From the NCBI GenBank assembly GCA_008632985.1, contig QPGO01000017.1:620001-684000 (forward strand): DNA of 64,000 nucleotides, read 5' to 3'. The notes beneath the pieces are model-generated. The model was given only the letters and a program-made list of their open reading frames with translations. It had not been told where the DNA came from and made no database searches. Positions 32,392-59,379 of this stretch are shown here, in pieces. Each line of letters starts with the position of its first letter. Position 1 is the stretch's first letter. The position numbers and the translations under genes are program-made. The DNA comes from Psammoneis japonica. Its lineage: Eukaryota.

Positions 32392-32583
32392 TGTCAGCCT
32401 GTCTGCACCTGTCGTGTGATGGACAGACTGGACACGGATGATGGCCAGACCATTTAGATGGACGAGCAGATCTCTCTGAGATCTGCTTCTCACTCTTTTC
32501 TCACCAGTGCTCGTGTCATCACAGTCCTGGCACTTTGGGGAGTCTTTAGACCATCGTCACCTCATGCCTTCGGCACTCTGTCA
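32392..32583 (+). repeat. 5' LTR, family 1
   Basis: Direct repeat with 39397-39588. Confidence 0.95.
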
Positions 32584-32782
32584 GGTTGTGGCCTTGTGCT
32601 GTGCCACAGACCTCTGCGCCAAGCTTTCCACTTCGACCCACTTGTTTTGTGAGCCGATCGAGCAAGCCTCATCATCTGATCCGACAACTTTTTGTCTTGC
32701 TTTCCCGGCATTTTTCACGACCATAGAAACATGCCAGATTTCTGCGCGCGCATGACCAAAAATGGATCAACCAACTAAAACC

Positions 32783-37800: not shown

Positions 37801-39218
37801 AGCTACCCTGCATTTGGTGGTGATGCTCGTGACGCCTGTGCACATTCTCCACGGCCGTCACACCCTGTCTACGTTGCCACAGACAAAGCGCATGCCACGT
37901 GGCACAAGGCTGTTTTGGCATTGATTTGGACAGGAGCATGGTCCTTCCAATGCAACATGCACTTCAAGGACACCCAGAAGCCGGCGTGCTCTGGGAGATG
38001 CACATCAATGGCATTTTGTCCGATGTGAACTTGCTCTTTCGCAACACCACTCATGACAAATGCATCCATTTTGCCACTTTTGAAGGACACAAGGTGTTGC
38101 TTCTCCATCAGGTTGATGATTTCTCCCTTGCTTGTCCTGAAGAATCTATTGTGATCAAGATCTACGACAAGATTGGCAAGGCCCTCCAATTGGAATTGGA
38201 AACTTCTCCGCCCTTCAAGCATTTTGACATGATTGAAGAATTCAATGGTGCGGACATTCATCAATGCGATGATTCCATTGGTGCAGCTGTTCACAGCCAC
38301 ATGGATCGGGTTTGTGCCTTGCATGGTTGGTCGACACCGACAGATGAGGAACTCGATGATGACTGCAAGGCTGCACCTCTCCCGGTCAACTCTGTTCGTG
38401 AACTGCACACTGCCATTGGTCCAGCTGAAGGAACCCCAGAGCATGCAGAGTTACAACAAGCTGCTGGATTTGGGTGCCGCACCCCACTTGGTGAATTGTT
38501 GCATGCACATGTTGTCTGTCGATTGGACATTGGGTGTGGTGTCATGACTCTGTCCAAGTTCTCTACTTGTCCTGCTGTGGTTAACTACGATGCGCTCAAG
38601 GGCATGTGCAAGTGCCTTTGCTGTGCCAAACATTGGGAATTGAACTGCAAGAAGCCTGTCCGCGACTCAAAACCACCCGCCTGCCCCTTCGAACGTCTCA
38701 CTCCGGACCCAACCTTACCATCATTCCCTTGTCCCGAGTGTGATCATCAACTCATTGCTTTCTTGGATGCTGCACATGGTGATGACCTCCGCAACCGTTG
38801 CTCTGCGACTGGCCATGCTTGCATGTTGGCTGGTGCTGCTGTGTCTTTTCAATGTAAGACTCAATCGGTGACAGCTGCGAGTTCCACGGAAGCTGAATTC
38901 CATGCGGCTGGCACCACTGCCAAGCATGTCCTTTACCTTTGTCACATCCTACAAGACCCAGGCTTCCCTCAGATGGAGCCAACCCCGCTGCACATTGACA
39001 ACAAATCGGCAATCAAGATCATCAACCATTCGATCCCAACCGAGTGCTCCCGTCACATTGAGGTCCAGTTTTTTGCGATCCAAGAATGGAAGGACGCGGG
39101 CAAGATTGTCACAAGACATGTCCTTGGCATTGTCAACCCTGGCAATGACCTTGTCAAGGCTCTTGGCTGGGCACTGCATGCTTGCCACGCTCGACGCATG
39201 ATGGGACACTGCTGTTGA
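34789..39218 (+). pseudogene. pol: Copia pol in the -1 frame relative to gag; premature TGA at 35602, frameshift near 37905
   Basis: LDTGAD (PR); HQRLGH/CPTC; VDF..VDQGGE..VER (IN); QVDDF (RT); LDAAHG..STEAEF..IDNKSA (RNase H). Confidence 0.92.
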
Positions 39219-39396
39219 TGCTTTTTTTTCGCGGTGGCCTCCCTGCTGCACATTGCCCCTTTTGTTTGATTGCGTGTTGGGCATGGACACTTGTCGTGTC
39301 CCATGTCTAGTCTCTCTGTTTTTCCTCACATCATCCCCATTCTTTGGTTTGATCTGCACTCATCTGTGTGTTGAGACATTGCAGATCACGGGAGGG

Positions 39397-39588
39397 TGTC
39401 AGCCTGTCTGCACCTGTCGCATGATGGACAGACTGGATGCGGATGATGGCTGGACCATTTAGACAGACAAGCAGATCTCTCTGAGATCTGCTTCTCACTC
39501 TTTTCTTGCTGGCACTCGTGTTGTCACAGTCCTGGTGCTTTAGGGAGTCTTTGGACCATCGTCACCTCACACCTTTGGTGCTCTGTCA
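39397..39588 (+). repeat. 3' LTR, family 1
   Basis: Follows the PPT; followed by the TSD. Confidence 0.95.
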
Positions 39589-42500
39589 TGTTGAAATGGT
39601 CATGGAGATCAAGCAAGATGTTACAAGCAGACAACTTGGGCGGTGGGAACAGCTCTGCAGAGCCATCGCAATCAAGCAAGATCAATGGGTGGCAGAAGAA
39701 GCACAGGATGGCTCAGAATTTGTTTTGGCGCGCAAGTCAACCAATTGACTTTGACAACAAAAATTAAAATCAAGTCCCAATGCTGCATTTGGTCATCACC
39801 CAGTCGGCAATGACAAGCAAAGTGAAATCCTGTCAAGCAGCTGGTTCAGAGTTGTGAAATTGTTGAGTTGCACCTCACTCATTGGGGGGTTCATGACTGT
39901 GTGTTGAGATCACTGGATGTTTGTTGGTTTGCATGGACATTTGTTTGTTTTTAATCACACCCATTTGTGATGAATGGGTGTGATTTGTGTTAAATGATGA
40001 TGATTCACCACAAATGCATTTGTGCAATGATGCTCACACACGCCATCTGCAACATTGTCCATTGGTCTGACCACAAGGCAATTCATGGAAATGGGCTTCT
40101 GATGTTCTTGCACTGCCATGATGGGCAACAACACCTTTGACTGGAGCAAGTGCATTGCTCACATGAAACTGCTGTGCTGCTTGTTGCGCCAAATGTTCTC
40201 ATTCTGTTTGCAGCATGCTTGAACAGGCTGTTGGATGATTTTGCCAGCTGAGACAGGCAAGTCATTCAAAGATTCATTGCATCACTGAAGTGTGTGTAAA
40301 AGAACATTGTGAAAAAGGTCATCTGCACAAGAGCAAAAGCTGAGTGCCAAAAACACAGAAAGCAAACTGCAGATTGCAGAGCAAAGGGGAGTGCAAAAGC
40401 AGCGTTCAGAACAGAGCTCATGGCAGAATCTGAAAAAGTGACAAAAGAGCATGCATCAAAGAAAAGACTGGCAGGTCAAGCCAAAATTGACAAGAGCAAG
40501 AGGAGCAAGACAAAGCAGACATGCATCATTGCAACACACCTTGTGACACAGAGGTGGCACCAACAACATCAACAGATGTTGATTTTTGAGAGAGTAAAAC
40601 ACAGTGCATGGTGCAGATTTGGATCCATGCATTGAAAAAGCTCTGCCCCGCAAAATTCAGCATGCAAAAATTCAAAGTCTCTACAGACACAGCAGGATTG
40701 CACTGGATTTGGGTGGCTGGCCAGCAACCAATCTGATGCTGGTTGATTGATTGTTTTTCCATGCCTGTCAGCACGGCAAGTTTGTGCTGAAGCTGAGTCG
40801 TGCTTGTCAAGTGAGTGTGGCTGCCACTTTTTTGTGCATCACATGCCCGCCATTCTCAGTGGCAGGGCCAGCAGCAAAAAAACAATGGACGTTTGGCAGG
40901 GAAAAAACAATGACTCAGGCAAGCCAGTGGAGCTGTGGCAGCTGCCAACAACAAGCTTGCAGTGCTGGTGCCACTCCTGAGCTGTCTGCAAATTGCCTGC
41001 TGCACCACGCAGAATGCACAACTCCAATCTTTGGTGGTGCAGCCTTGGCCCTCTGTGGTGCACCCACAATGCATTGATCTGCCTGGTTGCAGCAGGAGGA
41101 CGCAACCACAGCAGTTCCAGCCCACAATTGCCACAACTGAGGGGCCAACCACGGAGAAGCAACAGCAAAGATCAGACAAGGAAGTGAGGCACAATGCTGC
41201 CACACAAGGCAAAACACCATCAGAGCTCTGGGGAGTCTTTGGCATTGCAAAGATTCCACACTGGTGTCAGAAGAACAAGGCTGCACTGCCCCCACCATGG
41301 GCAGCATTGGTTTCTCTGCCAAAGACAGGAAATCTGGCTGCAGTCCAAAATGCCATTGATGAGCAGCGCCGACTCAAGTCCACTTTGACTTGACAGCAAG
41401 AGCAAGCCTCATCACCAAGTTGCTTCAGCTTGATTTTGTGGGGTGCAATCAGGCAGAGCCCACACAAGCTGTTGACCCCTCGCTGTGCTGCAAGTGGCTG
41501 AACAGATTGCCTGCCACAATTTGATGCATGCACAGATTCACAGAGGTGCAGGAGTGCCATTGCTGCAGGATGCACAGCTGCTCAAAGCACCAAACAAGGC
41601 ACTGATGGCAGCTGCTGTGCAAGCAGCCATGCAATCACATGACAGGTGCCACCTTGTCTGCTCTGCTGCCCTGGGTGAGAGAACCACCCCATTGTGCAGC
41701 AGCTCACTTTGCAGTGGATGAACATGGACAGGCACGCCAATGAGCTGGCATGTCAACACACTCTTCACCCAACACTCCAGCAATGTGCACAAGTTGAGAC
41801 ATGCAACTGGCTCCTGTCACAAGCCAGGACACACCGGAAGATCCCCTTCACAGGGTGCACAATGTTGTTCACAAGGCAGCCAAGAGAACCATGTTTTGGC
41901 ATCTTAGCTTGCCACTGGCCGGCCATGCTTCCTGCCAGTGCAGCCAGCATGATTTCTGCTGCCAATGAGTTGGACACATCAAGCACACAAGCACAGCCCC
42001 CTGCAAACGCTGCTTGTGCTGGAGCCAACAGTGTCATCAAACCCATCCTGCAACTTGTGCTTCACAAAACTGCACAATTGTCCCAATGTGTGCTCTTGTG
42101 AGATAAAAATGCAGTGCACCCAAGACAAGATCAATCTCCCCAAACCCCAAAGATGACCAAGGATGCATCTGCTGCAATCCTTGCCACATCAAAGGGCAGT
42201 GCAGCCAATGTCAACTGTGGCTCAAGCTGTGGTTGCTGCAACAATCACACCAACAAGGAGCAGCAGCAATTCCTTGCCTGGGGCAAGGAACACTGGGAGA
42301 CCAAATGGGTCTTTGGCAATGGCACAAGTTCAGGGACTTGTTGCCAAGAGCCTTTGCACGTGTTGGCCAAACAACCCACACATCCACAACCCCTGACTTT
42401 GGAGAGTTTGAAATGGCAGTGCACCACCCCACCATGCATGGACAGGGTGTGGCTGCCACAACTTACAATGACAAGTTGGTGAGCACATTTTTTTGACCTG

Positions 42501-43796
42501 CACTGCTTTGTTGCATTGCAAAGAACTCAGCCACTTGATGCATCATTGCAGCAGCAGCAGAGATTGGGGGCCATTGGGCTGGAGCCAATGGCACCCAGCA
42601 CACAGATTGCCAAGGGCCCACAAGCACAGAGAACCCCAGTGATCACAGCCAATGCACCATGGACGTTTGATGAGCCAGACACCAGTGTTGACAGAAGACC
42701 GCACACGTCTGCATGCAAGCATGGACCCCACTTAAACCACCACCACCATCATCACCTCTGTTGTGCCAAAATGTGCATGAATGAATTCATTGCCACTTCT
42801 CAGGGATCCTGTTGTTCATGCCACAACATCTGCTGAGTCATCCTGCGCACCTGGGACAACATCTTCCAACCACTCAACTCCGCCAACCTTGCCACCCACA
42901 AGGAGCCTGTGTCAGTCAAGAAGCTCTGCAATGGTGATGAAACTTGGTTGACACAGAAAGAGGTCTTGGGCCAGATCATCATTGACATGCAGTCCACAAC
43001 CACCCACCTCATGCCACACATGAAAGACTTTGCAGCACTCTGCACAAGGACTTTCCTTGCAACAGAAAATGTGCCACCACCGCTGACTGCCAGAAGCTCT
43101 CAGGAGAACTGCGTTCACTTGGCATTGGATTGCCAGGCTCATGTGGCTTGCACTTGGAACTTCAGGAAAACCCCCTCAACACAACACTGGACTCATGTGT
43201 CTGCTGCACACCTGATGCCCACTTGGCACTGGACAACTTTCACAAGCTTGAGTCTGCACTTGAATTGCACCCCATTTGCACCCAGGAACTGGTGTTGCCA
43301 ACACCAACCCTCACCAGCTGCTGTGACACAGCAGGTCATGGAGCAGGAGGCATGCTCCTTCCAACCAACACTGCCATCCCATGCTCCGCCAAAGAACTCT
43401 GTTTTGGCAGTGGGTGCTCCTGTGCACAATGCAATGCAAGCCCCATTGCACCGCACCTCCCCTTCCCCAAAAGCACCACATCTTGTCTTGCCACATGCAA
43501 AAACCCTTGAGGTCCCATCACTGATGTAGATCTTGAACTCACAGGCAGTGTCATCCAATCACATGCTGCTGGGTGTTGCAACATTCAGGAGTGCACCAAC
43601 CTTTCCTGAGCTGACAACTTGGGTGCCATGCACTGGCAATGCAAAGGACCTGCCACACAACCATCAAGCCAGCATCCATGTTGTTGCAATGCCAGGCATT
43701 CCACCAAAGCCACCATTGGCACCTTGGCCTCCATGATTTTTGGCCCAGACACCTCGACTCTGCCACTGATGATGCTTTGCGCCTTCAGCTCCCCAC

Positions 43797-44034
43797 CGAA
43801 AGAAATCCGATGTGTCAGATTTAGTTAGAGTGCTGTTGTTAGAGTGCCATTGGCAACGGCTGGTGCTGAGCCAACCGTTGTGACGTGCCATCGGAGGGAA
43901 GCGTTGGATTTCCCTCCAATGGCGCTCACTTGTTACGAGCAGTTGCAACAGGCCTGAGAGCATCTTTGGATCGTTAGATTGTTGTCACACCAGTGCTGTG
44001 AGTAGCTGAGCCATTCGGCAGCTGGATTTACTCG
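43797..44034 (+). repeat. 5' LTR, family 2
   Basis: Direct repeat with 50223-50460; followed by PBS-like catcagagccag. Confidence 0.9.
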
Positions 44035-44339
44035 CTTCATCAGAGCCAGTGTCCGCACTCCGCGGTTTGGTGATGGAAAACGATGAACAACGTGATTGTG
44101 ACGGTTGTGTCACGATGGCACGGTTTTGACGACGAATGCCGACTAACCTGAGGGTGTTCACCGTTGAGTGATGCCTTCGCATCAGTGCATGCGCAAAGCA
44201 GTGGGAGATGAGGCCACATCACCGTGCTCTCAAGGCCTGCGCGTATAGCCAACGAGATTTTGTGAACGTCAAAGTTTTGATGCACTTCTTCTAACACAAC
44301 TACTTTGTCTTATGATGCTGCAATGAATCAGGTTTCACC

Positions 44340-45761
44340 ATGGCGGCAGCCCCACCGAACCCGATGGAAACGGCCCTTGCTTGGATCGGTTTCCAGCTGC
44401 CTGCTCAGCGTAACGCGATCATGACTGATGTCGCTACGTTTGACGATGTCGTCGACATGAAGGAATCGGACATCGACATGCTCGCGCAGTCTTGTTCGAG
44501 GAGGACTGCTGCTGAGGGGCGTTTCCACTTTGGATTAGCTCGCACCCGTCGTCTCAAGTCCCTTGTTCATTGGGTGCATGACTTCCAACGCGTCAGTGAA
44601 AATCCTGCCATCAACGGTTTGGATCAGGCGCGTTTTCTCAATGCGCTATCTGCTGCGTTGTCGAGGGCCGACATTCGCAGCCAGATGAGGGATCAATCCG
44701 AGTCCATTGCTCGTGAGGCATCCCCTGGACTCTTGGAGAGCGAAAAGGTCTGGGCAAAATGGAGTGCCGCTTTCAAGAACATGCTTGGCACGATGCTGGG
44801 AGTCGACGGCGTTCCGTTGATTTATGTCACACGCGAGAACGAGGAGCCCGAGCCTGAAGGGCATGAGACTTTCATGCAGAAGTTGGTTGCATGCGCTCCA
44901 CTCGAGGGTCCAGCTTTCGAAGCTGATTCTCGTGCCGTCAGCCAACTAATCGTTTCGTTCACGAAAGGTGCCCCAAGCAAGCAGTGGATCAAAGAGCACC
45001 GTGACAGCCAGAACGGTCGTCTCCACTGCAAATCTTTGGAGAACCACTGTCAGGGCGAGGGCAACACTGCCCGTCGTATCTCAGAAGCTGAACGTTTGGA
45101 AAACACTCTGCATCACAGGAGTGAACGCTCCATGACGTTCGAAACGTTCGTGAACAAGCTTCAGGAGATGTTCAACATTTTCGAAGAGAATGATGAACCC
45201 AAGACGGAGGCTCAGAAGCTGCGATTGCCACTCGACAAGGTGCAACACCAGCAGTTGCAGAACGCAGTAGAGACCCTGAAGGTGCAGAATGAGTTCGGAG
45301 GAGGGATTGGTTTTGCTGCAGCGTGCAACCATCTTGCCGCTAAAGTCGCCACTCTCCCGGAAACAGTTGTGCACCGTCGTGCGATTTCCTCTGTTGCGTC
45401 CGGCGTTGGCAAGGAAGGTGATTCCATTTACAAAGAAGATGGGTCCATCAACACCGGATTTCATAAAAATTGGCATCAATTGAGCAAGGAAGACAAGAAG
45501 AAGGTCATGGACGAGCGTGTGCGTTTGGGACTCAAGAAGAAGCCGGGTAACCCGAAGCGCCGCGCTGCATCCGTCAGATCGCTTAAAAAGAAGAATCGGA
45601 AGCTGACGTCCCAGCTTGAGCAAGCGAACTGCACCATTTCTTCCTTGGAGACCACTGCCGGCACCAATTCCGGAAAGGTTGGCACAGGAACTGGCAGTCA
45701 AGGCGGCAACAATGCCGGAGACGCATTTGGGGGACGCCAGGAGCGTCAGCAACGCAGCTGA
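44340..45761 (+). CDS. gag: Copia family-2 Gag (473 aa)
   Basis: Open ORF downstream of the LTR; GVDGVPLIYVTR, basic C-terminus, AGDAFGGR. Confidence 0.85.
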   Translation: MAAAPPNPMETALAWIGFQLPAQRNAIMTDVATFDDVVDMKESDIDMLAQSCSRRTAAEGRFHFGLARTRRLKSLVHWVHDFQRVSENPAINGLDQARFLNALSAALSRADIRSQMRDQSESIAREASPGLLESEKVWAKWSAAFKNMLGTMLGVDGVPLIYVTRENEEPEPEGHETFMQKLVACAPLEGPAFEADSRAVSQLIVSFTKGAPSKQWIKEHRDSQNGRLHCKSLENHCQGEGNTARRISEAERLENTLHHRSERSMTFETFVNKLQEMFNIFEENDEPKTEAQKLRLPLDKVQHQQLQNAVETLKVQNEFGGGIGFAAACNHLAAKVATLPETVVHRRAISSVASGVGKEGDSIYKEDGSINTGFHKNWHQLSKEDKKKVMDERVRLGLKKKPGNPKRRAASVRSLKKKNRKLTSQLEQANCTISSLETTAGTNSGKVGTGTGSQGGNNAGDAFGGRQERQQRS

Positions 45762-48700
45762 CTCCCAAGCTGGACCCTGTTCTGTAGCCTCATCCAGTTT
45801 GCACTGTGGCTGCTTCATTGGGGTGGGGGCCAGCCGCATCGTTTGAAAGAAACGTTGGTTCATGGGGACTGTTGTTGCATTTGTGAAATCACTGCTTCCA
45901 CACGACGAGTCTCTGTGGCACGGACCAACACGCGTGCCACTCACGTCCGAACAGACGATCAGGTAAAGCGTGGGCGACTAGAATTGGACTCACATGCTGA
46001 CACTGCTGTTTTTGGTTCTAACTTTACCCTCTTGGGTTACACTGGCAGAGAATGCGACGCATCACCTTGTGACGAGGGATGCGAAGCTGTCAAGAGTGTC
46101 CCAATCGCATCCGCGGCCACTGCGTGGACCTCACCGGCGACGGGAGCAACGTGTGCCCCAGCATTCCATGAAGGGCTTTGGATGGCAGATTCCATGGAGA
46201 ATTCTCTCCTCAACCCGAATCAGATGAGGCATTTCAGCATCACGGTTCAGGATGACCCCTGTTCCGAGTCGCCGTTGTATGTCCTTACGGAGGACAAGGG
46301 ATTCATGCTGCCCCTTGAGTTGATGGGAACTGGCATCGTTGCGGCAACTCGGACCCCCACTGAAAGGGAGCTCCAAGAGTGCCCACACATCCAGTTGACC
46401 TCCCAACAACCTTGGGATCCACACAACGTCAAGTTTAAGCAGTCCAGACCTCGACGTTCTGTGGAGGAGGAAATGGAGTTGATTCGGTCGGTTGCAACTG
46501 TTCGGTCAAGCCCTGGCCATGCGTTCAGTCAGGATCCTGATTGTGGCAACCCTCAGACCGGGGACTGTTGTGACAGGAGACTCATCTACGGTGTGGACCA
46601 AGTTCAATCAAGATTGACAGTGTCAGTCCAGGTGGAAGTGGATGTTCAGATCGCGGCCACTGAGACGATCGGCTCGGAACTCGAAGACGCACCGTCCCCG
46701 AAGACTTTCATGTCCAAGGAACGGCACAGTTCTGTCACCGCTGTTGACTTGAGCNNNNNNNNNNNNNNNNNNNNNNNNNNNNNNNNNNNNNNNNNNNNNN
46801 NNNNNNNNNNNNNNNNNNNNNNNNNNNNNNNNNNNNNNNNNNNNNNNNNNNNNNNNNNNNNNNNNNNNNNNNNNNNNNNNNNNNNNNNNNNNNNNNNNNN
46901 NNNNNNNNNNNNNNNNNNNNNNNNNNNNNNNNNNNNNNNNNNNNNNNNNNNNNNNNNNNNNNNNNNNNNNNNNNNNNNNNNNNNNNNNNNNNNNNNNNNN
47001 NNNNNNNNNNNNNNNNNNNNNNNNNNNNNNNNNNNNNNNNNNNNNNNNNNNNNNNNNNNNNNNNNNNNNNNNNNNNNNNNNNNNNNNNNNNNNNNNNNNN
47101 NNNNNNNNNNNNNNNNNNNNNNNNNNNNNNNNNNNNNNNNNNNNNNNNNNNNNNNNNNNNNNNNNNNNNNNNNNNNNNNNNNNNNNNNNNNNNNNNNNNN
47201 NNNNNNNNNNNNNNNNNNNNNNNNNNNNNNNNNNNNNNNNNNNNNNNNNNNNNNNNNNNNNNNNNNNNNNNNNNNNNNNNNNNNNNNNNNNNNNNNNNCA
47301 TTTGTGAGAGCTCACCATTTGGACGCTGGCATTCCTCTGGAAGAAATGCTTGGCGAAACTGTTGACATCTCAGAGCACCTTGACTTTGGATTCTACGATT
47401 GGGTTTGGCACAGGGAGAATGCTGGTCTTGGTGACCAGAAGCTCGGCAGGTGGCTCAGAGTGTCCCACCGGATTGGCAGTCTAATGTCATGTTACGTGTT
47501 GACGCAAACCGGTCGTGTCATGTCGCGAACATCTGTTCAGCGAGTCACCAACTTGGAAGCTGGTGCTCAAGAGAATCAAGATCGGTTCAAGGCTTTTGAC
47601 GAGGAGATCCAGCGCAGACTTCGTGACCAAGAGTTTCCCGAAGACGAAGAGCGCAGGATCAGCCCCGAAGACTGGAAGGACTGTCTTGGGTACGACGACG
47701 AATTCCTCGACGAGTGCGATCGCGTCATTAGTTCTGAAGATGTGTCAAACAAGGACGGCGACAAGAAAGACGAGGAAGCCTCCCCGGAAGCGGCGGATTG
47801 GGGTTGTCTCAACATGGAATTGGCTTTGCCGAGAGATGATGATGGTCCCGAGTTCGCGCGTGCAACGAAGAGGTTGAGGGATGCGAGTGGCATTCCCATT
47901 GGGACAGCCAACGACAACCCAATCCTAGACACTCGAATGCATCAGGTGGAGTGTCCCGATGGTCACACTGCAGCACTTTCAGCCAACTCTGTTGCCATGA
48001 ACATGTTCGCACAGATTGACAAGGACGGAAATCGGCATGTTCTGTTCGACGAGATCACAGACTTCCGTACGAATGGGGACGTCCCGGAATCCGATTTCTT
48101 TGAAACTGAGCAAGGCAACAAGAGGCGGCGCAGGACCACGAAAGGATGGGAACTCTTGTTCCAATGGAAGGATGGTGGTGCTACTTGGGTTGACCCAAAG
48201 GACGCGAAGGAAGGATTCCCTGTCCAGGTCGCCGAGTTCGCCATCCAACGCAAGATCTCGAAGGAGCCGGCGTTTGCTTGGTGGGTTCCGCACGCAATGA
48301 GGACCCGCAAGCGTTCCATTGCGAAGGTTAAGTCGAAGCATTGGTTGAGAACCCATAAATTTGGTGCACGAATTCCCAAGACTGTGAAGGAGGCACTGGA
48401 GCTCGATCGCGCGAACGGCAACACCTCATGGCATGACGCTGTTTGCTTGGAAATGAAGAATGTTCGAGTTGCGTTCGACAAGTTCGAGGGGGACGAAACG
48501 GAACTGCCTCCTGGGTGCCAACAAATCGATTGTCACATGATTTTTGATGTCAAGTTGGGAGAGAACTTTCGGCGCAAGAGCAGGATGGTTGCGGGTGGTC
48601 ACATGACCGATGCCCCAACTGCCATCACCCACTCCTCAGTTGTTTCCAGGGATTCGGTGAGGATTGCCCTTACACTTGCCGCGCTCAATGACTTGCAAGT

Positions 48701-50054
48701 CTTTGCCTGCGACATCCAGAATGCCTGCTTGACAGCGCCGTGCCGAGAGAAAATTTGGACTCGTGCCGGTGAAGAGTTTGGCGCGGAACGCGGTGAGATT
48801 GTGATTGCAGTCAGGGCACTCTACGGATTGAAGAGCTCCGGTGCGGCATTCAGGGCCTTCCTGGCGGAGACGCTTTGTGATCTGGGATGCAAGCCTGGCA
48901 AGGCTGATCCCGACGTTTGGATGAGGCCAGCAGTGAAGCCAGACGGATTCGAGCACTACGAGTGCATCTTGGTGTACGTCGACGACTTTCTGTCGATTGG
49001 TCATGAGCCGATGAAGACTGTGGATGGCATCAAGTCGAAGTTCAAGCTCAAAGACGATAAAGTGGCGGAACCCGAATCCCACTTGGGCGCCAAATTGTCG
49101 AAGATGGACCTTGCTGACGGTGCCACCTGCTGGACGATGTCAGCAGAAGATTGCTGCAAGGCGGCAGTCTGGAATGTTGAGGACAAATTGGCCAAGGAAG
49201 GAAAACGGCTGCCGAGTAAAGCACACACACCTTTGAGTGGCGGACACAAGCCGGAGTTGGACACTTCGGGCGAACTGGATGCAGAAGGCCTCAACTGCTG
49301 CCAAGAGCTGATTGGCGTTTTGATTTGGGCCGTGGAATTGGGTGGGGTCGATGTCATTTTGGAAGTGTCAAATGTGTTGGCTCACCTTGCCTTGCCGCGC
49401 ATTGGTCACTTGGAACAGGCATTGCATGTCTTTGCATACCTCAAACAGGTCCCAAAGCGCCGGGTGGCATTCGATCCCACACATCCGGTCATCGACGAGT
49501 CTGGGTTCAAGGAGTGCGATTGGCTCGACTTCCACCGAGACGCGCAAGAGGCGATTCCCCCCAACATGCCACCACCTCGAGGTGACGTTGTGTCTGCTCA
49601 TTGTTTCATGGATGCCAACCATGCTGGTGACGCATCAACTCGCCGCAGTCATGCAGGCACTCTGATGTTCCCATGCCAAGCACCCATCATCTGGCATTCG
49701 AAGAGACAGAACACCGTGGAGACTGGCACTTTTGGCGCCAAGATCGTGGCACTCAAGGTCGCGGTGGAACTTGTTGAAGGTCTGAGGCACAAGCTTCGAA
49801 TGTTTGGAGTTCCTGTTGAAGGTTCTACGAACGTGTTCTGTGACAATGAAGCAGTGTACAAGAATTGCTCCATCCCGGAGTCTGCTCTCAAGAAGAAGCA
49901 TCATTCCATTGCATGCCATCGCAATGGGGAAGCTGTTGCTGCGGGGACTGTTCGCCTGGCAAAGGAGGACACGGAAACTGACCTCGCGGATTTGTTCACG
50001 AAGGTTGTGACTTCGATTCGTCGCAATTTCCTGTTGGACAAGTTCACTTGTTGA
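45762..50054 (+). pseudogene. pol: Copia family-2 Pol (PR, IN partly in the gap, RT, RNase H); no stops in the sequenced parts but many TpA-derived missense changes
   Basis: ELDSHADT (PR); HSSVVSRDSVR; DIQNACL; ALYGLKSSG; VYVDD; DANHAG; CDNEAV; LADLFTK. Confidence 0.9.
46755..47298. other. Assembly gap (544 N) within the integrase region
   Basis: Run of N. Confidence 1.
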
Positions 50055-50222
50055 ATTGGCGGCAAATGGGGTTTGGATTTTGGGAATTGGGTCGGTGGTG
50101 ATTTTCTTCCCTGGTGAGGGTTTACACCATGGCCAGCACGGAGTGTTAATGTGGTTGATTGCATTGGTTGAATTGTGCCTGTCAAGCACGCCCTTGGCTT
50201 GTTAGAAACATTTCAAGGGGAC

Positions 50223-50460
50223 CGAAAGAAATCCGATGTGTCGGATTTAGTTAGAGTGCTGTTGTTAGAGTGCTGTTGGTGACGGCTGGTGCTGAGCCAA
50301 CCGTTGTGATGTGTCATCGGAGGGAAGCGTTGGATTTCCCTCCAATGGCGCTCACTTGTTGCGAGTGGTTGTAACAGGCCCAAGAGTGTCTTTGGATCGT
50401 CAGATTGTTGTCACACCAGTGCTGTGAGCAGCTGAGCCATTCGGCAGCTGGATTTGCTCG
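50223..50460 (+). repeat. 3' LTR, family 2
   Basis: Follows the PPT; DIRS sequence resumes at 50461. Confidence 0.9.
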
Positions 50461-51904
50461 CCACCAACCATGAATTTCTGCAACACTTTGACCCTTGTCA
50501 TCCACAGATGCTCTCCTGGCACCTTTGGATGCCACCACCAGAACCAAGCTCATTTGTGAGCTCAATGCTGCTCATCATGCCATGGCACATTGCATTGCTG
50601 ATTTGAGAGCTGCCTCCACCAACACCCACTGGGACAAATGGCATGAGCTCTGCATCACCATGGCCCTCAACCAACTGCTCCAAGATGTCAATGACCCTGC
50701 CATCTTCTTGCAAGTTTTCCTCCACTGCTGCCACACAGGAGCCATTGCCCTGAGCAGACATCCCATGTGTGGACAAACTGCTGAAGATGCCGTGTGGTTG
50801 GTTGGCCAAATGTTTGCTGCAATGGGGTCCCTGGACCCATGCCCACCACACCTCAAGGCAACATGGATTTCCAACTCACCCACCAAGTCAATTTCTGCAA
50901 GAAAGAAGATCCACTGCCCAGTCATGTAAAACCAGTCTTGGTTGCCATCCTCACCTGGATTGTGCATGCTTCTGCCAACAGCGCTGATCTGGGTGCCAGA
51001 GCAACAGCTGACACAATTCCCATTGCTTTCTTTTGTGTGCTGCACCCTGGCAAATGCACAGCCAAGCCATCCAACACAACACCATTCTGTCTTGTCAACA
51101 TCTGACTGGCATCTGGAGGTGTTTGTTTAAACATCCTCCAAGCCACCAATGCTCAGCTTGATGCTGCCACGTTTGCCACCCTTGTGTGTGCAACACAAAA
51201 GCACGGTGTCCATTGGGAAGTTTTGGGGCTTGGCCATTCCAGACACCCCAATTTGTGCCCAACACAGGCACTCATCTGTCGCATCCAACATCTCCAATCT
51301 TGTGGTGCACTCCTTGACACACCCCTTGGCATCTATTTTCATGATGATGCCTGGTGTCGCGTGTCCCCTGCCAATGTCACAAGCACCCTGCACACTGCCG
51401 TTTTTCCTTGCAGTCTGGCAAATCTTGGCTTTGACACCCAAGATGTCACTGCTTGGTGCCTCTGTGCAGCTGGCACCATGACACCACTCTGCGCCAATGT
51501 TCTTGACACCAACCTCACTTGGCTCTTGGGCCATTGGCGCAATCCAATGAAATGTTGCACTGCCTGCACTTGCAGGCAGAGCCAGTTGGGCACAATTTTG
51601 CTCATGACATGCTTGCTGGTGGCCATTTCATGCTTCATCCAAATGTCAACATCCTGATGAATCCACAAGATCCATGGGACTGGATCACCCTCAGCCCTCC
51701 AGCCTCCCCCACCCACCCTCCCACAATGGTGCATTGCACTGTGGGTGGTGCTGGAAGGCCCTGCCATTCCAGCTTGGGTTTTGAGAATGAGGCTTGCACA
51801 TCCGCTGGCAAAACCATCCCCCAGTCCAACAACAGAGCCATCAGTGTCTCTCCATTTTTCTGCTGGAGAGCTGCAGGAGAACAAACAAGAAGGGTGGCAA
51901 CAGC

Positions 51905-52990
51905 CTGCCTGAACATCGAAAAGCTCTGATCTGCTCTCCATTTGGCACTGAACCATGATGCACATGGCTTTAAAAGCAAGAGGATGCTTCTGAGACCCAT
52001 GCCTTCATTTTGTTTTGAAGTGCGGCAAAGTTTTTGAGTCTGTCACTGAAAGACCCATGCCGGCACCTTGCTCTGACCTGGAAGTTCTTTGGGGCAGGGG
52101 CTTGGCTGAGCTTGGCCTTGCCATCTTGCCACCCAAACAGCCACCATCAGCAGTGGCACACTTCCCATCAGGAATCTTGTCTTGAAGCACTTCATGAGGT
52201 TGTTGACCAAGCTTCTCATGAAGTTTTCTGCTGTTGACAATTATCATGAGTGCTGCAAAATGTGGTGCTGTCATGCTTTCTGCCTCTGAGGGGGGCTGGC
52301 AATCCATGTGCAATTGGAAGTGCAAACATGGAAACCAACCTCAAACTGGAGAGCAGCACAGTTGAGTTTGCAGCCCATGCTTTCTGTCTTTGTTCAGTCA
52401 TGGGTGCTTCTTTTCCAAGTGGTGCAGCTGGTTGTGTCTTTGGCAAGCCCAAATTTTTAGCATTTGGATTGTCAATCAATGAAGGCCAAACAACCTTCAT
52501 CTGTTTTGACACAATGGCAACTTTGTGCACCCACTGCTGCACATGCTCACCATGAGAACAACTGCTCTTGCAAATCCCAAAGTGCTTGGCAAGAATTCTG
52601 GATTCTTTGGGCAAGTGCACAAAAAACTGTGTGCAACTGATGGCACTTTGAAGCCTGTTTCTGACCAGTCTTTTTTGTCAAGCTTTGCAGCAGGTGTGCT
52701 CATGCAGCAAAAGTGTTGCCAAATGCACTCAATGGTGTCTGGAATGGAGCCACAAAATGACTGAAGTGCAGCATCACTGGCTTTCAAACAGCACTCATCA
52801 GTTGACTTTGGATCAAAGTTGATGCAAAGATGCTTCACTGCTCCATGACAAAGAACATTGTTTGGAGAAAGGACCTTCAGTTTTGGTGCATGACAGCATT
52901 TTGAACAATTGGATGGAGTTGATTTCTTTGGTGCAACAATGCAGAATGTGAGTTGCACTGTGCCAGTCAACTTGACTGCATGCCACACTC
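51905..52990 (-). mobile_element. PIF/Harbinger-like (DDE_Tnp_4) transposase pseudogene; partial second copy at 53055-53345
   Basis: SFCGSIP, HSFLCTCPKN, PLRGRKHD, GKCATADGGC, RHGSQKHPLAFKAMCIMVQCQME..LFDV across frames. Confidence 0.65.
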
Positions 52991-53349
52991 AGCTGACATC
53001 ACTGGACTCAGACTCAGATTTTGCAGCTGCCAGCAATGCTCAATGTGGGTCTCAACCAATGGCATTTTGAAGCCTGTTTCTGACTGGTCTTTCCTGTCAA
53101 ACTTTGCAGCAGGTGTGGTTGTGCATCAAAGGTGCTGCCAAATGCATGCAATGATGTCTGGACTGGAGCCACAAAATGACTTGAACACAGCATGACTGGC
53201 TTTCAAACAGTGCCCATCAGCTTGCTTTGGATCAAAGTTGATGCAAAGATGCTTCCATCCATCACAAAGAAGATTGCTGGGAGAAAGGCCCTTCATTTTT
53301 GGTGTGTGGCAGTGTTGTGAGCCATTGGATGGAATTGATTTTTTTGTGC

Positions 53350-53640
53350 AACAACACAAGTCTGAATGCACTGGCTTGTCACATGCTCTGCAAGAAGCCA
53401 TGCCCCTGATGGAGATGCTGAAAGAACTCAAGCAGCAAAGATTTCCTGTCAAGACATTGCAGCCTGAGATTTGGCACAGAGCATTTGAGGACAATGGCAG
53501 TGCACTGGAAAGGGCGCAGGTGCATGAGTGCAGACCATGAAAAAAGCACTTGAAAATCAAGTTGCATTGCTTCCACGACTTTGTCACACAGAAAGAAATC
53601 CAAATGCACAGCATGGATGCCAAGGACCAACTGTCTGGCT
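53350..53640 (+). mobile_element. Copia RNase H fragment (third family)
   Basis: SECTGLSHALQEAMPLM...AFEDNGSALE...KHLKIKLHCF. Confidence 0.75.
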
Positions 53641-54449
53641 GACAGTCTGGCTGAGCCAGTTGTGGCTGAGATCCTGGAAGCCTTGCATCCTTTGGTGATG
53701 GGTTGGCGAGGGCAGTGGGGCAATCGATGTTTCTTAAACATCAAGAAACAGACAAGAATGGCAGTGCAAAGTGCTCCACACACTGCACACACAAGCACTG
53801 AATGGGCCTGTCCTCCAAATGAGCAGCATCCAAACTCCTCTTGTGGGCACTGCTGTCAGCCCCTGTTGTCATAAATGTTGTGTAGAAAATGGAACAGAAA
53901 GGAGATGCATTGCAATCGTGGCACATGATTGATTGTAGAGTGCAGCATTTTCCCTGCAGAACACCTTGCTGAAGGTTGAACAAGGAGATGACATCGACAG
54001 TGTGCAAAGTGAGAAAATGGAGGTGACATGTTCAATGAACAGTTGCAAGCATGCAGCAAAACAACAGAAAAAATTGTGCTCACACAAGTGGCCTCACACG
54101 TTGCCAATGTGAGCACATGAAGAAGAGCAGAGTGAGATGTCTCAGTGTGAGTGTCACAACAGGGATGGAAATGGACAACTCATGGTTGTGGTGCTTTTTA
54201 GATGCTCTGAACGGTTTTGACTTGAGAAAGTTTGGAATTTTGATTTTGGGTGCATGCACTGCATGAACAAAAAAGAAACATCATGGGCCAAACATTCAAA
54301 TCTTGGATGGGCATGCGTGGCATGCAGATTCCAACACAACATGATGTGTGCATGCTTCGCCACAGACACAACAGCCAGCGTGGTTCACCTGTGGTTTCAA
54401 ATTTTTGTGATTCACCATGACCAACTCTCCTCATGGGCTGCAGACCATT

Positions 54450-55330
54450 TGCTTTTTGTGCAGTGCATTGCATGACTTCAAACAATTGAGCACATGGATG
54501 GAAAGCACCCTTTCTCAATGCCAAGTGCAAAAGATGTGATGCCTTGGCTTGAAATTTTTGTGTTGTGCCAAGTGCTGAGAACACATCACATGCCCCAAAC
54601 AAGGCAAACAAACATTCATCACTGTTGACTGATGACTGTTGATGTGGACCAAGTGAATGTTCCCATCAACAACACCAACAAACTTCAACTGGAAACAAGC
54701 CTTGATCACAAAAAGGCTGCCACTCCAATGGTGCGACATTTTTTCCATGCAGGAGAAAGGATTGTGCTGTCAGAGCAGAAATTTTTTGTTGTGAGAGCAG
54801 AAATTTTTTGCTTTGTCTGTTGCCTGTCAAAGACAGAAGGGGCGTTGCCATGACAGAAAGTGGAGCCTGATCAACTCTGCACACATGTTGATTGTGCGCT
54901 GCCTTTGCTTTAACCCACAGGGAACTCCATGGGGCAGTGAAACATGTGCATCAGATGGTTGGAAACTTGACACATGCATCATTGGTGCTCCAAGTGCAAG
55001 ACATGAAGTTGGGTGAAAATGACCTGTGGGCTCATGCTTTCTGCCGCAGCCTTTGCTGTGCACACAACTGTGCACACCACTGCCAAGGCAACTCCAGTGC
55101 AGCTGGTCTTTGGATGTGATGCAATTTTGTCTGTTGCCTGTCACACCATTTGGAGGCATGTTTGGGGCAGAAAGCAGAAATTAATCTGCCCAAATGGCAA
55201 GCATGAGAACTCAAAGAGAAGAGAGTGCCAACGTGTGAAGGAGCAACTTGTGCTTGAAAAGCAGGAATGATGGACAAATTTGGCACTGACAGCAATGCAG
55301 GGCCAGCTGCAGGAGAGTGACAGATCATGG
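54450..55330 (+). mobile_element. Ty3/Gypsy integrase remnant
   Basis: NPQG..VKHVHQMVGN; LSAAAFAVHTTVHTTAKATPVQLVFGCDAIL; RKQKLI...ENSKR. Confidence 0.75.
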
Positions 55331-57866
55331 ACGTGGTCATCTTTGCATTCAACAAAACCAGCCAAACCCTGATGTCATGAGGAAAAAGAAATTTTTTGTG
55401 CTGGAATCTCAAGGGGACTCACATTGTGCTCAAATTTCAAGTCGTTTGAGTCAGAATGAAATCAAAGATTCCTTTTGGAGTTGTTGCAACTGCTGATTGA
55501 CAGCAAAGAATTGTTGCAATGGTGTCAACTGAGCTGTCTTCAATGCAGTGTTCTTTTCCTGATGCCCCCATTAAAACTCAACAAGAGCATCAGTGAAATT
55601 TTGAGTGTGCACTCTGCAGAAGTTGTTGTCAGCAAAGCTGCTCAATGATGCTGAACACAGCAAAACATTTGTTGACATTGTTCCTTGGTTTTCAGGATTT
55701 GGGGGCACCAAACAGCCTGAAAAAAACAAGAGCATTGAACCAAAATTGTGGCTGTGCATTTTGTGGGCGGAGCATCTCATGTCAATGTCACTTGAGTTGA
55801 CAAGTGGCATGAAATGATGCCATCATCAGTGGTGTGTTATGCTCATCTCGTTGAGTTGATTTGTGATGTGAAACATTGCAGTGTGAAGACCTGCAGCACA
55901 TCATTTGTGCAGATTTTTGCACTGCGCTTGCTTGCAAAAAAGCACAGCAAAGCCAAAACAGCTCATGAGTGTGGCTTCTTTGCTGTGTTCACTGATGTCA
56001 TCTCAAAAGTGGTGCACGCCAGCATGACATGGTGAGCGCAAAGGCCGCAGCCTTCACTCGTGATCTGTTGCTCCAGTTGTTCAAGTTGATGACCACCCCT
56101 GAGCAGGGGGGTTCTTGTGTCAGTTGCCTCGGGTGTGCAGTGCTTGGTTGGTTGCATGCAATGGCTCACATTGTCTGTGCAAATGGGCAGAGCACTTGTG
56201 CACTCACAACACAGATGCTTGGATCTTGGCACATGGGCATTTTCTGTCTCTTTGGATTTTCTGAGAACCCCCACGCACCATGACAACTCCACACACTGTC
56301 AAACCATTTTGCCGCTCAGAATCTAAATCTGCCACCCAAACACTGCAGCTCATTGATGCTGCTCACTTGACAGGCTGTGGCATTGCACTCTCCTCCTTCC
56401 TCAGAAAGCAGGGGCACAGACAATTGCTGCAAGCTCCACATGCAAACAGCACGCTGCTGGTTTGAGGGAAATCAACCAGTTTTTGCAAAACATTGAGCTG
56501 GTGAGATGAGCTGAGTGATTGTGATGGTTTTTGCACAAGCTTTGATGCCAAATTTCTCACTCAATGTTTGTCTCCCCCTTGAAGGCAACTCATGATCACT
56601 TGACATCAAGCAGACACTGGATGACAAGTGCTGCAAGGGCAGAGACAAAGACACAAGGTGAGCTCATGATTGAGATGCATGACTTCCATCTTGATGACTT
56701 CCTTCCTCAGAAGATGTCCTCACTGCTGTCTTTTGACTCCTCTTTGCCACAATCATTCTCATGGATTTGTTGCAACAGACACAGGTGGTTGTGCAATGAC
56801 AACATGGATGGTTGGTGCAAACACTGCCAAAGTCATTGCACTCAATTCAATGTGAATGACAGATGCTGCAGCCTGCACTTTGCCCAAACTGTGCCAAAGC
56901 TGCTGTCTTTGTGTGCTGTGCTGTGGATGATTCAGAATGTTGGAATGGCTTGAAAAATGGAAAATGATGCAAGATCAGCCATCAGCATGAGAAGACAGTT
57001 TGCTTTTTGACAGTCCTTTTGGCACGTTGTTGTTGACTCTTCTCACAAACAGAGCTGACATCATGCAAGTTTCATCAAAACGACTCTAAAACTCAATCAT
57101 CCACGATGCACTCACAGCCATCCCTGTTTTGGACTGTGTTTTGAGTCTCCCTGACAAGCCCCAATGTTTTGAGTGCCCCTGGAGTGCGGTTGCATCATTT
57201 TGTTCCCACAGCACGCACTTTGCAGAAAATTGTGACAGTCAAAAGACAAAGTGCCGTGTGATTGCAAGCCAACCACAACCATGAACAACATGCCAAGTTG
57301 GCAAAAAGTCAACAATGCATTGCAAACATTTTGACCAAACAAGCTTGTTGATTGGGAACAAGTGAAAGGCATCTCAGCAGGTGCACTTGGTGGTGACAAC
57401 AACGTGAAAACAATGACAATGTCACAGACCCAATGACAGACCACACAAGATGATCAATTTGCCTTTCAAGCTGCAACAAAGCACAGACAAAATCTTCAGC
57501 AAGCACTCGAATGGCACAAAATGAGAAAACACAAAAAGAGCTTGACATGGCAACATTGTTGACCACTCGAATGTCAAGTGTGCTGCACCACAATCAACTC
57601 ACAAGTCAAGCCATGCAACCATGTGGCATGTGCAGCAAACAAAGCACCCCAGGAAATCAAGCCAATGTGTCAAAAATCTTTGTGACAATGGCACAAGAAG
57701 ATCCCCCTGCATGACACATCATTGCCATTGTCTGTTGTTTTGCAAACACCAGCTGTGCCAAACAGCAGATTGGCGGCACACAAGACCCTGATGTCCACTG
57801 TTTTGTTGCAACACTCAGCAATTGTCAACTCTCTTTTGCCCCTGGCAAGCCACTTGCCATTCAATT

Positions 57867-58247
57867 GGTGTTTCCTGAATGTGCATTTTGGTCGGACCAA
57901 ATTGGCATTTTGGTCGGACCAAATTTGTTGACAAATTTGATGCTCGCGACCAAAATGATTTTGTTTCCCGAAAACGTCATTTTGGTTTGGAGAATTTGGC
58001 GTGCTTTTGGTGGAAATCTTCTGTTGGAAAACGCGCATGTCAACATGCCGTGCAAATTTTTTTTGTAGAAGCTGCATCAGCATTGTTTGTGTAGAAATGC
58101 ACATGAAAGGAATTTGGTCGAGATTTCGCAAATGACAATTTGGTTGACCAAATTGATTTGGTCAGTCTGGCAATTTGGTCAACAAAAGCATTTTGGTTTG
58201 GCCAAAATGCCAATTTGGTCCAACCAAAATGCACATTGGGAAACACC
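57867..58247. mobile_element. ~380-bp MITE with long TIRs and reiterated TTTTGGTCGGACCAAA motifs
   Basis: ggtgtttcctgaatgtgcattttggtcggaccaaattggc mirrored by gccaatttggtccaaccaaaatgcacattgggaaacacc. TSD not resolved. Confidence 0.75.
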
Positions 58248-58742
58248 GTTTGCTCTTTTTTGGGCTCATGCTGCTTCTTGTGGCTCTTGTTCTTTGGTGG
58301 CATGGTTGTCTTGTGAAAGATGAGGGAGCAGTGGCCTCAAGTTGTGCTTCTCTGTCATTTTGGCCATGTCAGCAGCAGCTTGAAAAATTGTCAAGATGAT
58401 GAAATGGTTTGACGGTGCACACTGCAGAGTTGTCACAGCACAGGGGCCTCTGTGCAAACTCATTTCCAGGTCATTTCATGTGTGAGCATTGGGGCAGTTG
58501 ATGGGTGCCAAATGCTGCAATTGTGCCCAATGTGATGAAAATGACACACAAGCACACCAAACTCCCTTTTTCAGGATTTGCCCCTTCTTGGCATGTGCAA
58601 GTCACATGGTGGCTGAATGTTGTGCAGAGGCCCCTGCCAAGGGGCAGTCAATGACAATGACTTCTTTTGTGTGCGAGAAGGTGTGTTGGTGGACACATCA
58701 AAAATGTGTCCCTTGCCAGCAGTGGAACCTTCTGTGGCACCC

Positions 58743-58752
58743 CTGCTGCAGC

Positions 58753-58784
<32 letters not shown>

Positions 58785-58790
58785 ATGATG
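58743..58790. repeat. Compound (CTG)n(ATG)n microsatellite
   Basis: Seen directly. Confidence 0.9.
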
Positions 58791-59379
58791 CTTTCCTGCA
58801 TTGTCTGCAGGCTGTCTGCAGCAATGCTGATCCCGCAGAAGCATGCACTGGAAACATGACTCCTGGCACAAGACCTGCATCAGGCTGCAGGAGATCCATG
58901 TGACTGAGACCAACATGACTGGCCATTGTGCAAGTGACTCACTTTGCACAAAGTGTCTGCGTGGGATGTGTGCAGCACCGAGCATCACTGGTTCTGCACA
59001 AGGACTCAAGCTCTGCACATCTTGCTGTTGCACACACATGTGCTCTGCTCAAACAGCCTTGCTGTGACTGAGTGCTTGGATCCCATTTTTGCATGGGGCA
59101 CCACCTCCTCTTGACACACAATGGACACAAGACAGACTCTGTCCACAAATGCAGTTGCTGACAGACAGCTGGACCATCACAATTTGTTTGGTCCCCACAA
59201 GAGCCAATGCAAGGTGCTGGGTTGGCTCAATCAAATCTCAAAACAAGAGCAAAACACACACAACCCAAGTTAAGGCCACTGAGATGCACTTGGTCTGAGA
59301 GGTGAGAACACATGGGCAACACACCACACGTGTCCGGCCTTGGCATCGGGACCTGCCAAAACAAGTTGAAGCACACGTT

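Follow-up and report, generated by a model that had tools for sequence, protein, structure and literature searches.

The 64,000-nucleotide stretch of Psammoneis japonica DNA studied here (assembly GCA_008632985.1, contig QPGO01000017.1, forward-strand positions 620,001 to 684,000; hereafter the window, whose own numbering is used throughout) contains a long terminal repeat (LTR) retrotransposon at positions 43798-50460. Our analysis makes it probable that this focal element is a young, polymorphic copia retrotransposon that possessed a normal TpA content when it inserted, that then underwent targeted TpA hypermutation on both DNA strands, and that has only begun to lose its CpG steps. Its two LTRs differ at 13 sites (18 mismatched bases), none of them by a transversion; five of these sites have a TA facing CA or TG, five have CA facing TG, two have CG facing TG or CA, and the last one is another type of transition. 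This recount agrees exactly with the tally given in an initial annotation of this DNA. When the pair is rewritten in purine/pyrimidine coding, it is 100% identical across 242 nt. The mismatches are strongly concentrated, with 15 of the 18 bases falling into the 26 columns of inferred ancestral TA steps and three into the remaining 215 columns (Fisher p = 2e-14).

Insertion polymorphism and direction of change

The ends of the element were fixed with contigs from run X1, the one public run with this DNA, whose contigs derive from one sample. One of them joins position 43792 to position 50461, with five letters fitting either side, and possesses the CCACC target sequence just once; a contig from the left flank terminates exactly at 43797. 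The empty-site and filled forms coexist in the X1 sample, and the insertion is polymorphic, i.e., heterozygous or segregating. Since the empty-site form still exists, the element must be young, and since the empty-site contig joins the two flanks of the LTRs, both LTRs stem from one insertion. The direct repeat as originally detected (43795-44035 / 50221-50461; 241 nt, 93% identical) is longer than the LTR proper because 3+1 letters of duplication and flank match as well; a target duplication sought by eye from these detected ends gave no match, and the question was settled only by the empty-site joint. Run X2 provided no contig coverage of the window.

With two direct LTRs, a 5-bp target duplication and a copia-type RVT_2 reverse transcriptase, the element has the hallmarks of a Ty1/copia LTR retrotransposon, and it is probably one of the diatom type. 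The RVT_2 domain occupies residues 401-596 of the pol part that follows the assembly gap (PF07727; E = 3.6e-14, 53.4 bits against a cut-off of 31.6), and PF07727 is present in all 120 homologues among the matches listed. Relatives of pol can be found in their thousands in public metagenomes (the best one is 68% identical). In the ESM Atlas, the closest clusters consist of copia reverse transcriptases, and the few members that bear a label are for the most part Bacillariophyta. Profile scanning of the gag-like open reading frame (ORF) 1 (44316-45761) yielded no Pfam family. The sequenced parts of pol gave no integrase Pfam match, and the span of the gap coincides with the expected position of the integrase core. 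The LTR termini differ from the usual TG...CA.

On the window, 871 X1 contigs could be placed at a likeness of at least 90%; 240 of these reach at least 99%, and 631 are below 99%. Their summed depth amounts to 224-1219 in bins lying fully inside the sequenced element compared with 63-70 in the left flank, a quantity that is not a copy number. Together with the N gap in the body, these data would suit an assembly artefact, in which the scaffold mixes copies of the family and the LTR differences are differences between copies. We nevertheless give this explanation little credence: each LTR is contiguous with its own flank, the empty-site contig joins these same flanks with a perfect 5-bp duplication, the flank contigs show 0-1 differences per 358-798 nt relative to the window, and a second LTR pair shows like differences. 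Variation among the X1 contigs comprises 135 variant places (125 transitions and 10 transversions), and 31 of the 32 sites behind the 40 listed variant rows are changes within TA/TG/CA/CG steps. Eight of these 31 sites are CA<>TG exchanges, five are TA steps kept by the focal copy, and four are TA steps kept by others; the CpG sites comprise 12 with CG in other copies and TG or CA in the focal copy, and two of the reverse kind. The CA<>TG differences imply that the copies of this family were hit independently, and the 12 versus 2 CG sites that the CpG decay of the focal copy has begun.

The direction of change was read from the pol sequences of 15 relatives, with tyrosine (Tyr) columns counted if conserved in at least 12 of the 15. 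At 27 such columns, the focal pol has His ten times (always encoded by CAY), Cys ten times (always TGY), Phe twice, and Tyr in the remaining five. Not a single Tyr>His or Tyr>Cys replacement was found in the 24-25 columns of each of the 15 relatives when these were handled identically. Over 578 conserved pol positions, the focal element departs from the consensus of the relatives at 103, compared with 16-41 in each relative, and its open frames consequently do not imply an intact element. The TA>CA/TG change can account for 43 of these departures, CpG transitions for five, and neither of them for 55. Replacements of Val by Ala, Leu by Pro, and Leu by Ser had been suspected in the initial annotation, and all three were borne out by the 15-relative consensus, since Ala-188 (GCA) stands where the relatives have Val, and Pro-299 (CCA) and Ser-376 (TCA) where they have Leu.

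As had also been described before, the body of the element (43798-50460, N excluded) is rich in CpG and poor in TpA, with observed/expected (O/E) ratios of 0.87 and 0.19, respectively, at a GC content of 0.53, and gag and pol are free of stops outside the N gap. Open frames are uninformative in such DNA, because TA>TG/CA changes create no stop codon and erase TAA and TAG. On both strands taken together, the element has 43 TAA, 33 TAG, and 251 TGA triplets (251 vs. 76), and its antisense ORFs measure up to 298 amino acids.

The low TpA content could have been inherited, either because the family is intrinsically TpA-poor, a possibility raised along with the initial annotation, or because a mutated master copy spread, and other X1 copies do carry CA or TG at many sites too. 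This is very improbable. In 77 related metagenome elements, the median TpA O/E is 0.68 (0.47-0.90) and none falls below 0.3, at a CpG O/E of 0.88 and a GC content of 0.49, while the focal body has a TpA O/E of 0.14-0.20 and a GC content of 0.53-0.54; the family is therefore not TpA-free by nature. The metagenome search patterns favor intact copies, and the absence of depleted elements among the 77 says nothing on how widespread the process is. Tyr makes up 3.1-4.2% of the relatives' pol but just 0.9% of the focal one. Moreover, the loss that the LTRs suffered after insertion (0.67; see below) covers the whole deficit of 0.72-0.74, and the CA<>TG exchanges, 8 of the 32 listed X1 sites, represent independent hits.

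Since the two LTRs differ from each other and Tyr>His and Tyr>Cys replacements are equally frequent (10:10), we conclude from the alignments that it was the genomic DNA that changed, that it did so after integration, and that both strands were affected. ADAR-like A-to-I editing of the RNA prior to reverse transcription would have affected only the sense strand before integration, which agrees neither with the 10:10 ratio nor with the differing LTRs. Repeat-induced point mutation (RIP)-like C>T changes that make TA would have raised TpA, while O/E values of 0.03-0.19 were observed and the outgroup gives TA as the ancestral state. Both kinds of process are known to mark retroelements or repeats, and a preference of ADAR-type enzymes for U before the edited A is mentioned in a preprint on the alga Bigelowiella natans (Mettrop et al., bioRxiv 10.64898/2026.01.13.699255); as the source of the pattern seen here, they are exceedingly improbable.

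Extent, order, and targeting of TpA loss

We quantified the losses with a three-class likelihood on the LTR pair (3 TA/TA, 5 TA/x, and 5 CA/TG sites), to which concordant double hits are invisible, and obtained a TpA loss per LTR copy of 0.67 (0.47-0.83) and a CpG loss of 0.08 (0.014-0.23). A two-class estimate of the TpA loss was dropped; it predicts 1.0 CA/TG sites where five are observed, a discrepancy that we read as heterogeneity among TA sites. Decay of the 13 CpG sites at a loss of 0.08 would yield 0.04 CA-vs-TG sites instead of these five (P = 1e-9), and, judged from the alignment, they are independent TA hits on opposite strands in the two LTRs. The sizes of the TpA loss agree between the LTRs (0.67), the Tyr columns (20/27 = 0.74), and the body (1 - 0.19/0.68 = 0.72), so that practically all of the missing TpA was lost at this locus. 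In hits per site, the values for TpA, CpG, and other sites are about 1.1 : 0.083 : 0.004, or relative rates of roughly 260 : 20 : 1; the last of the three values comes from one difference in 119 columns and is very imprecise. Two thirds of the TpA steps having disappeared from an insertion that is still polymorphic, the process must be fast.

The order of the two losses can be seen both in the LTRs and in the window at large. In the focal LTRs, 15 of 26 TA copy-sites were hit compared with 2 of 26 CpG copy-sites (p = 2e-4), with 2 of the 13 LTR CpG sites differing. Among 126 usable 500-bp sub-windows, nine keep both steps, 45 are low in TpA and high in CpG, 72 have lost both, and none is high in TpA and low in CpG. 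TpA/CpG O/E values form a monotonic series across segments (0.51/0.91, 0.19/0.87, 0.13/0.63, 0.11/0.29, 0.04/0.12), and CpG O/E declines with the decay of the elements (0.87 > 0.63 > 0.29 > 0.09-0.15). TpA was thus lost well before CpG across the whole window. The order postulated in the initial annotation is upheld by the LTR losses of 0.67 vs. 0.08 and by the 0/126 sub-windows of the TpA-high/CpG-low kind, and so is its description of older DNA at 50.5-64 kb without TpA and CpG (TpA 0.03-0.04, CpG 0.09-0.15). Where both steps have been erased, i.e., in the flanks and in the relic, TG/CA O/E amounts to 1.9-2.0.

This order had been interpreted as two layered clocks. If every TpA decayed fast and every CpG more slowly, composition would date a sequence, and the monotonic series of segments as well as the lack of TpA-high/CpG-low sub-windows are what such uniform clocks would produce. 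A 2.5-kb duplicate core at the left of the window, whose two copies are 97% identical, behaves differently. It contains 13 transversions in 2499 columns and a divergence of 24/1278 outside pyrimidine-purine (YR) steps, compared with no transversion and 1/119 in the focal LTRs (p = 0.72), but 78 of its 86 TA steps are unchanged in both copies, and 9 of its 172 TA copy-sites were hit as opposed to 15 of 26 in the focal LTRs (p = 5e-10). Since the duplicate core was spared at equal or greater divergence, the TpA loss must have been aimed at particular tracts, and since a 97%-identical duplicate was spared, duplication alone is no trigger. In addition, the log TpA loss divided by the log CpG loss, calculated by us with the medians of the relatives as starting values, declines with age from about 13 in the focal LTRs to about 5 in the two 7.2-kb elements of the window and about 1.4 in the old relics; the TpA trajectory is non-exponential, with a fast early phase and then a slow tail on refractory contexts. 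The process reported for B. natans is likewise regional and was active in only 11 of 15 lines. We therefore judge uniform clocks to be improbable; of the layered clocks, the precedence of TpA loss over CpG loss holds, while a TpA clock ticking evenly in all DNA does not, given the 9/172 vs. 15/26 TA copy-sites hit.

Survival of TA steps depends on the flanking bases. In the depleted DNA, defined as the window outside 3501-7000 and 21501-24500 (about 57 kb), ATAT does not occur even once, although it is the commonest TA context in the relatives. Survival relative to the relatives is lowest for ATAC/GTAT (0.02), GTAC (0.05), ATAG/CTAT (0.06), and ATAA/TTAT (0.09), and higher for CTAG (0.10), CTAC/GTAG (0.17), GTAA/TTAC (0.19), CTAA/TTAG (0.22), and TTAA (0.27); these context estimates use the relatives as the baseline of ancestral composition and are approximate. 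The partition of products, likewise approximate, suggests that an A followed by C or T is a common target, one followed by G an intermediate target, and one followed by another A a rare one. Of the 62 TA steps that survive in the focal element, 39 stand in TAA/TTA contexts, where 41% are expected (p = 7e-4), and the three TA steps kept in both LTRs are all TTAG. A T precedes the codon in 0 of the 10 Tyr>His and in 3 of the 10 Tyr>Cys replacements; on the hit strand, such a T is an A after the target. The context counts from the LTRs and the Tyr codons are small and point in the same direction as the context rule.

Several points weigh against a young element under targeted hypermutation as we describe it. 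A strand-run test for processive same-strand hits, which sees only sites differing between copies, detected no excess in four alignments (p = 0.24-1.0), and the division of hits between the strands (5:1 and 3:6 in the two LTRs) is not significant; there is no strand clustering and hence no support for a processive single-strand enzyme. The age proxy of the LTRs is a single non-YR difference in 119 columns, which makes it very imprecise, and the empty site was read from one contig with 25+5 letters on its short side. In view of the many related contigs and the N gap, the body may be a mosaic of copies, and its statistics would then be family-wide; the LTR results are safer, being anchored to unique flanks. 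The enzyme, its guide, the chromatin mark, and the stage of the life cycle at which the process acts are matters of inference. Finally, the residual TpA and CpG contents are correlated among the TpA-low sub-windows (Spearman 0.75, n = 117), and part of the CpG loss may have a shared cause.

This correlation, together with the fact that both losses yield TG/CA in the same blocks, is what one would expect if the CpG loss were a slower side activity of the same machinery, e.g., of a deaminase acting on A after T and less well on C before G; the B. natans preprint cites enzymes of the ADAT2 type with editing activity on A as well as on C in DNA. We consider such a side activity unlikely, since CpG lags more than tenfold in the focal element and since, of 231 hypermutations reported for B. 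natans, 230 replaced A by G or T by C at TpA and no CpG component was present. In diatoms, CG methylation is directed mainly at transposons (PMC9998398), which already predicts CpG decay. Furthermore, a metagenome relative from another organism (L030) has a CpG O/E of 0.01 at a TpA O/E of 0.47, i.e., CpG decay without TpA erasure, which indicates that the two losses are separable in nature.

Proposed mechanism and surrounding DNA

The following course of events best accounts for these data. The element most probably inserted as a copy with normal TpA content, and local hypermutation on both strands then converted TpA to TpG or CpA (A:T to G:C) until about 70% of the TpA steps were gone. CpG loss, at about 8% per LTR copy, is at least ten times slower, and its simplest cause would be deamination of methylated CpG in silenced transposons, which is plausible. 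The end state is that of the old neighboring relics, in which both steps are erased and TG/CA is at twice its expectation. The data themselves demonstrate the direction of the change, its occurrence on DNA after insertion and on both strands, its local targeting, the precedence of TpA over CpG loss, and an influence of the flanking bases. A dedicated enzyme might carry out the TpA change, either a DNA adenine deaminase, as proposed for B. natans, or a thymine-modifying route, with the A of T-A steps in the double-stranded DNA of silenced elements as the probable target and silent chromatin or small RNA as a conceivable guide. A Pol-eta-type WA mutator was set aside, as ApA shows no depletion (AA O/E 1.16).

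It is possible, although we would not yet call it likely, that this diatom-type alga possesses a mutator dedicated to genome defense, with chromatin or small RNA as its guide. Such a mutator would recognize new transposon insertions in the diploid vegetative lineage and would deaminate, or convert in another way, the A of T-A on both strands under a next-base rule (C and T most, A hardly), thereby removing two thirds of these steps while an insertion is still polymorphic. As a chlorarachniophyte shows the same signature, the system would either be old and shared within the stramenopiles, alveolates, and Rhizaria (SAR) or have evolved repeatedly; if it exists, it would represent a naturally occurring adenine editor of DNA whose sequence context is defined.

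The features of the focal element and of the surrounding DNA are listed in Table 1. The relic at 59477-62500 shares 26-54% amino acid identity with the focal pol and its relatives and about 23% with the focal gag, and no Pfam family was found in the 11 ORFs tested from the right flank (50466-59400). Further joints among the X1 contigs connect 43367>50802 and 50400>44167, and four lie within 50059-50803; the extra joints in this latter part, which skip 83-160 nt, and the joint 43367>50802 may reflect length differences between alleles, or short repeats, within the old flank.

Table 1. Positions, strands, and supporting evidence or composition (O/E) of features in the window
Feature	Position	Strand	Evidence or composition
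Control duplicate core	4885..7388	+	partner 22442-24967, 97% identical; TpA 0.51, CpG 0.91
Comparison 7.2-kb copia	32389..39593	+	body TpA 0.14, CpG 0.63
Left flank, old repeat-like	39594..43792		TpA 0.05, CpG 0.13, TG/CA 1.99
Left target-site duplication CCACC	43793..43797	+	identical five letters at 50461-50465; empty-site contig
Whole element, LTR retrotransposon	43798-50460	+	both ends fixed by empty-site contig joint
5' LTR, 237 nt	43798..44034	+	repeat detection and empty-site joint
ORF1 (gag-like), 481 amino acids, TGA end	44316..45761	+	open frame; weak tblastn match to relic at 62500-62060
pol ORF	45762..50054	+	open save for N gap; heavily missense-mutated
Assembly gap, 544 N	46755..47298		hides about 183 pol residues, corresponding to residues 288-470 of relative P0004
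Polypurine-tract-like purine-rich run (putative), ending AAGGGG directly before 3' LTR	50204..50220	+	read from sequence
3' LTR	50224..50460	+	repeat detection and empty-site joint
Right target-site duplication CCACC	50461..50465	+	empty-site contig and sequence match
Right flank, old repeat-like	50466..59400		TpA 0.03, CpG 0.15
Degraded related copia relic	59477..62500	-	TpA 0.04, CpG 0.09

Two inverted copies of a 7.2-kb copia element are situated at 12804-19986 (-) and 32389-39593 (+), both with intermediate compositions (TpA 0.13-0.14, CpG 0.63). Compared in ACGT, the two share 85% identity, which rises to 96.6% in purine/pyrimidine coding, and they differ at 148 CA/TG sites. The LTR pair of the copy at 32389-39593 has 11 CA/TG, two TA/x (TA/TG), and one TA/TA site, a single transversion, and differences at two of six CpG sites; its TpA loss per copy amounts to 0.92. 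A copia relic on the minus strand at 7389-12803, with an SH3_retrovirus match at 9188-9937 and a partial copy of the 7.2-kb family at 12138-12803, is intermediate like the 7.2-kb elements (TpA 0.13, CpG 0.65).

The full duplicated segment from which the control core was taken spans 3728-7972 / 21287-25566, and no ORF in the core gave a convincing Pfam match. TA density in the core drops from 16 to 0 per 250 bp toward its right end in both copies, a shared gradient indicating that the right part was depleted before the duplication. To the right of the core, the blocks are in swapped order (7385-7782 + 7779-7972 vs. 24964-25157 + 25169-25566). Positions 4271-4864 are taken up by a tandem array of about five copies of a 117-nt unit (96-98% identical), which lies in an open frame for a Ser/Asp-rich repeated peptide; the corresponding ORF (4157-4894) gave Pfam matches without any stretch passing on its own.

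Both strands of the window together contain 90 stop-to-stop ORFs of at least 140 amino acids, many of them overlapping in antisense, an abundance that is due to the erasure of TAA and TAG. A Pfam scan of 50 of these 90 ORFs found retroelement domains in five; none of the 14 scanned ORFs from 50.4-64 kb has such a domain.

Comparison with known systems

In its architecture, the focal element resembles the CoDi Ty1/copia elements of diatoms (Maumus et al., 2009; PMC2806351), as these are described with an RVT_2 pol, a separate upstream ORF1, and short LTRs; its atypical LTR termini set it apart from them. In the same source, a haplotype-specific insertion with an empty allele is reported for the Blackbeard element, a situation like that of the focal insertion. 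APOBEC/ADAR editing in animals (PMC4866542) also leaves context-specific transitions of the deaminase type in LTR elements, but these enzymes, as described there, act on cDNA or RNA before integration and on one strand, while the focal changes arose after integration and on both strands equally. Decay of methylated CpG matches the slower loss of CpG to TpG/CpA in older elements and cannot account for the loss of TpA; the CG methylation of diatom transposons is attributed to DNMT5 (PMC9998398).

A full-text literature search found no report of TpA hypermutation in diatoms, and this kind of process is known in print from one 2026 preprint on an unrelated alga, the work on B. natans cited above. 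According to the preprint, two hypermutable regions of integrated viral DNA acquired 231 new mutations, of which 230 were A>G or T>C, all GC-biased mutations lay on TpA, on either strand, the rate was about 1000x background, and 11 of 15 lines were active; its authors propose an ADAT2-like adenine deaminase acting on DNA. From the reported numbers, we calculate a rate of 211 mutations/(6169 TpA x 3132 generations), or about 1e-5 per TpA per generation. At this rate, 1.1 hits per site would accumulate in about 1e5 generations, a span compatible with an insertion that is still polymorphic. The two cases share changes exclusively from TpA to TpG/CpA on either strand, their confinement to particular tracts of foreign DNA, outside of which the genome mutates normally, and a footprint of low TpA and high TG+CA, and in B. 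natans the TpA-depleted genes are reported to be enriched in reverse-transcriptase and transposase Pfams. Those features of the B. natans process that can be tested in a sequence were all found in our data: 10 of the 13 LTR sites are of its type, both strands are affected, and neighboring tracts are spared (9 TpA-normal vs. 117 depleted sub-windows).

The differences concern host, target, and degree. B. natans is a chlorarachniophyte with integrated giant-virus/virophage DNA, whereas here, in a diatom-type stramenopile, LTR retrotransposons and nearly all of the repeat DNA in the window are affected. TpA O/E of the B. natans viral region is given as 0.45, compared with 0.03-0.19 here, where the depletion is layered with CpG decay and is deduced from sequence only. 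The Results and Discussion of the preprint make no mention of a flanking-base effect like the one described above; the preference of the surviving steps is a constraint that any candidate enzyme must reproduce. To this one example in print, our analysis adds a calibration of the states before and after, obtained from an insertion whose empty site is proven, along with the polymorphism of that insertion, a quantification of the lead of TpA over CpG loss, an outgroup test with controls, the flanking-base rule, and a control that argues against both a uniform clock and duplication as the trigger. It also adds the warning that open frames carry no meaning in such DNA: with stop codons erased by the process, dead transposons retain long frames on both strands, gene callers over-predict, and such frames can be expected to be miscalled as genes.

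RIP, as it operates in Neurospora and other ascomycetes, turns CpA/TpG into TpA, lowers the GC content, and introduces stop codons. Like the process described here, it hypermutates specific dinucleotides by transition, destroys transposons where they have inserted, and can be recognized by its footprint in base composition. Both RIP features that we tested are absent from the window, since TpA is depleted and not enriched, and since the 97%-identical 2.5-kb duplicate was spared. With its removal of TpA and of stop codons and its increase in GC content, the process that acted on the focal element is the reverse of fungal RIP, a TA-erasing and GC-raising hypermutation.

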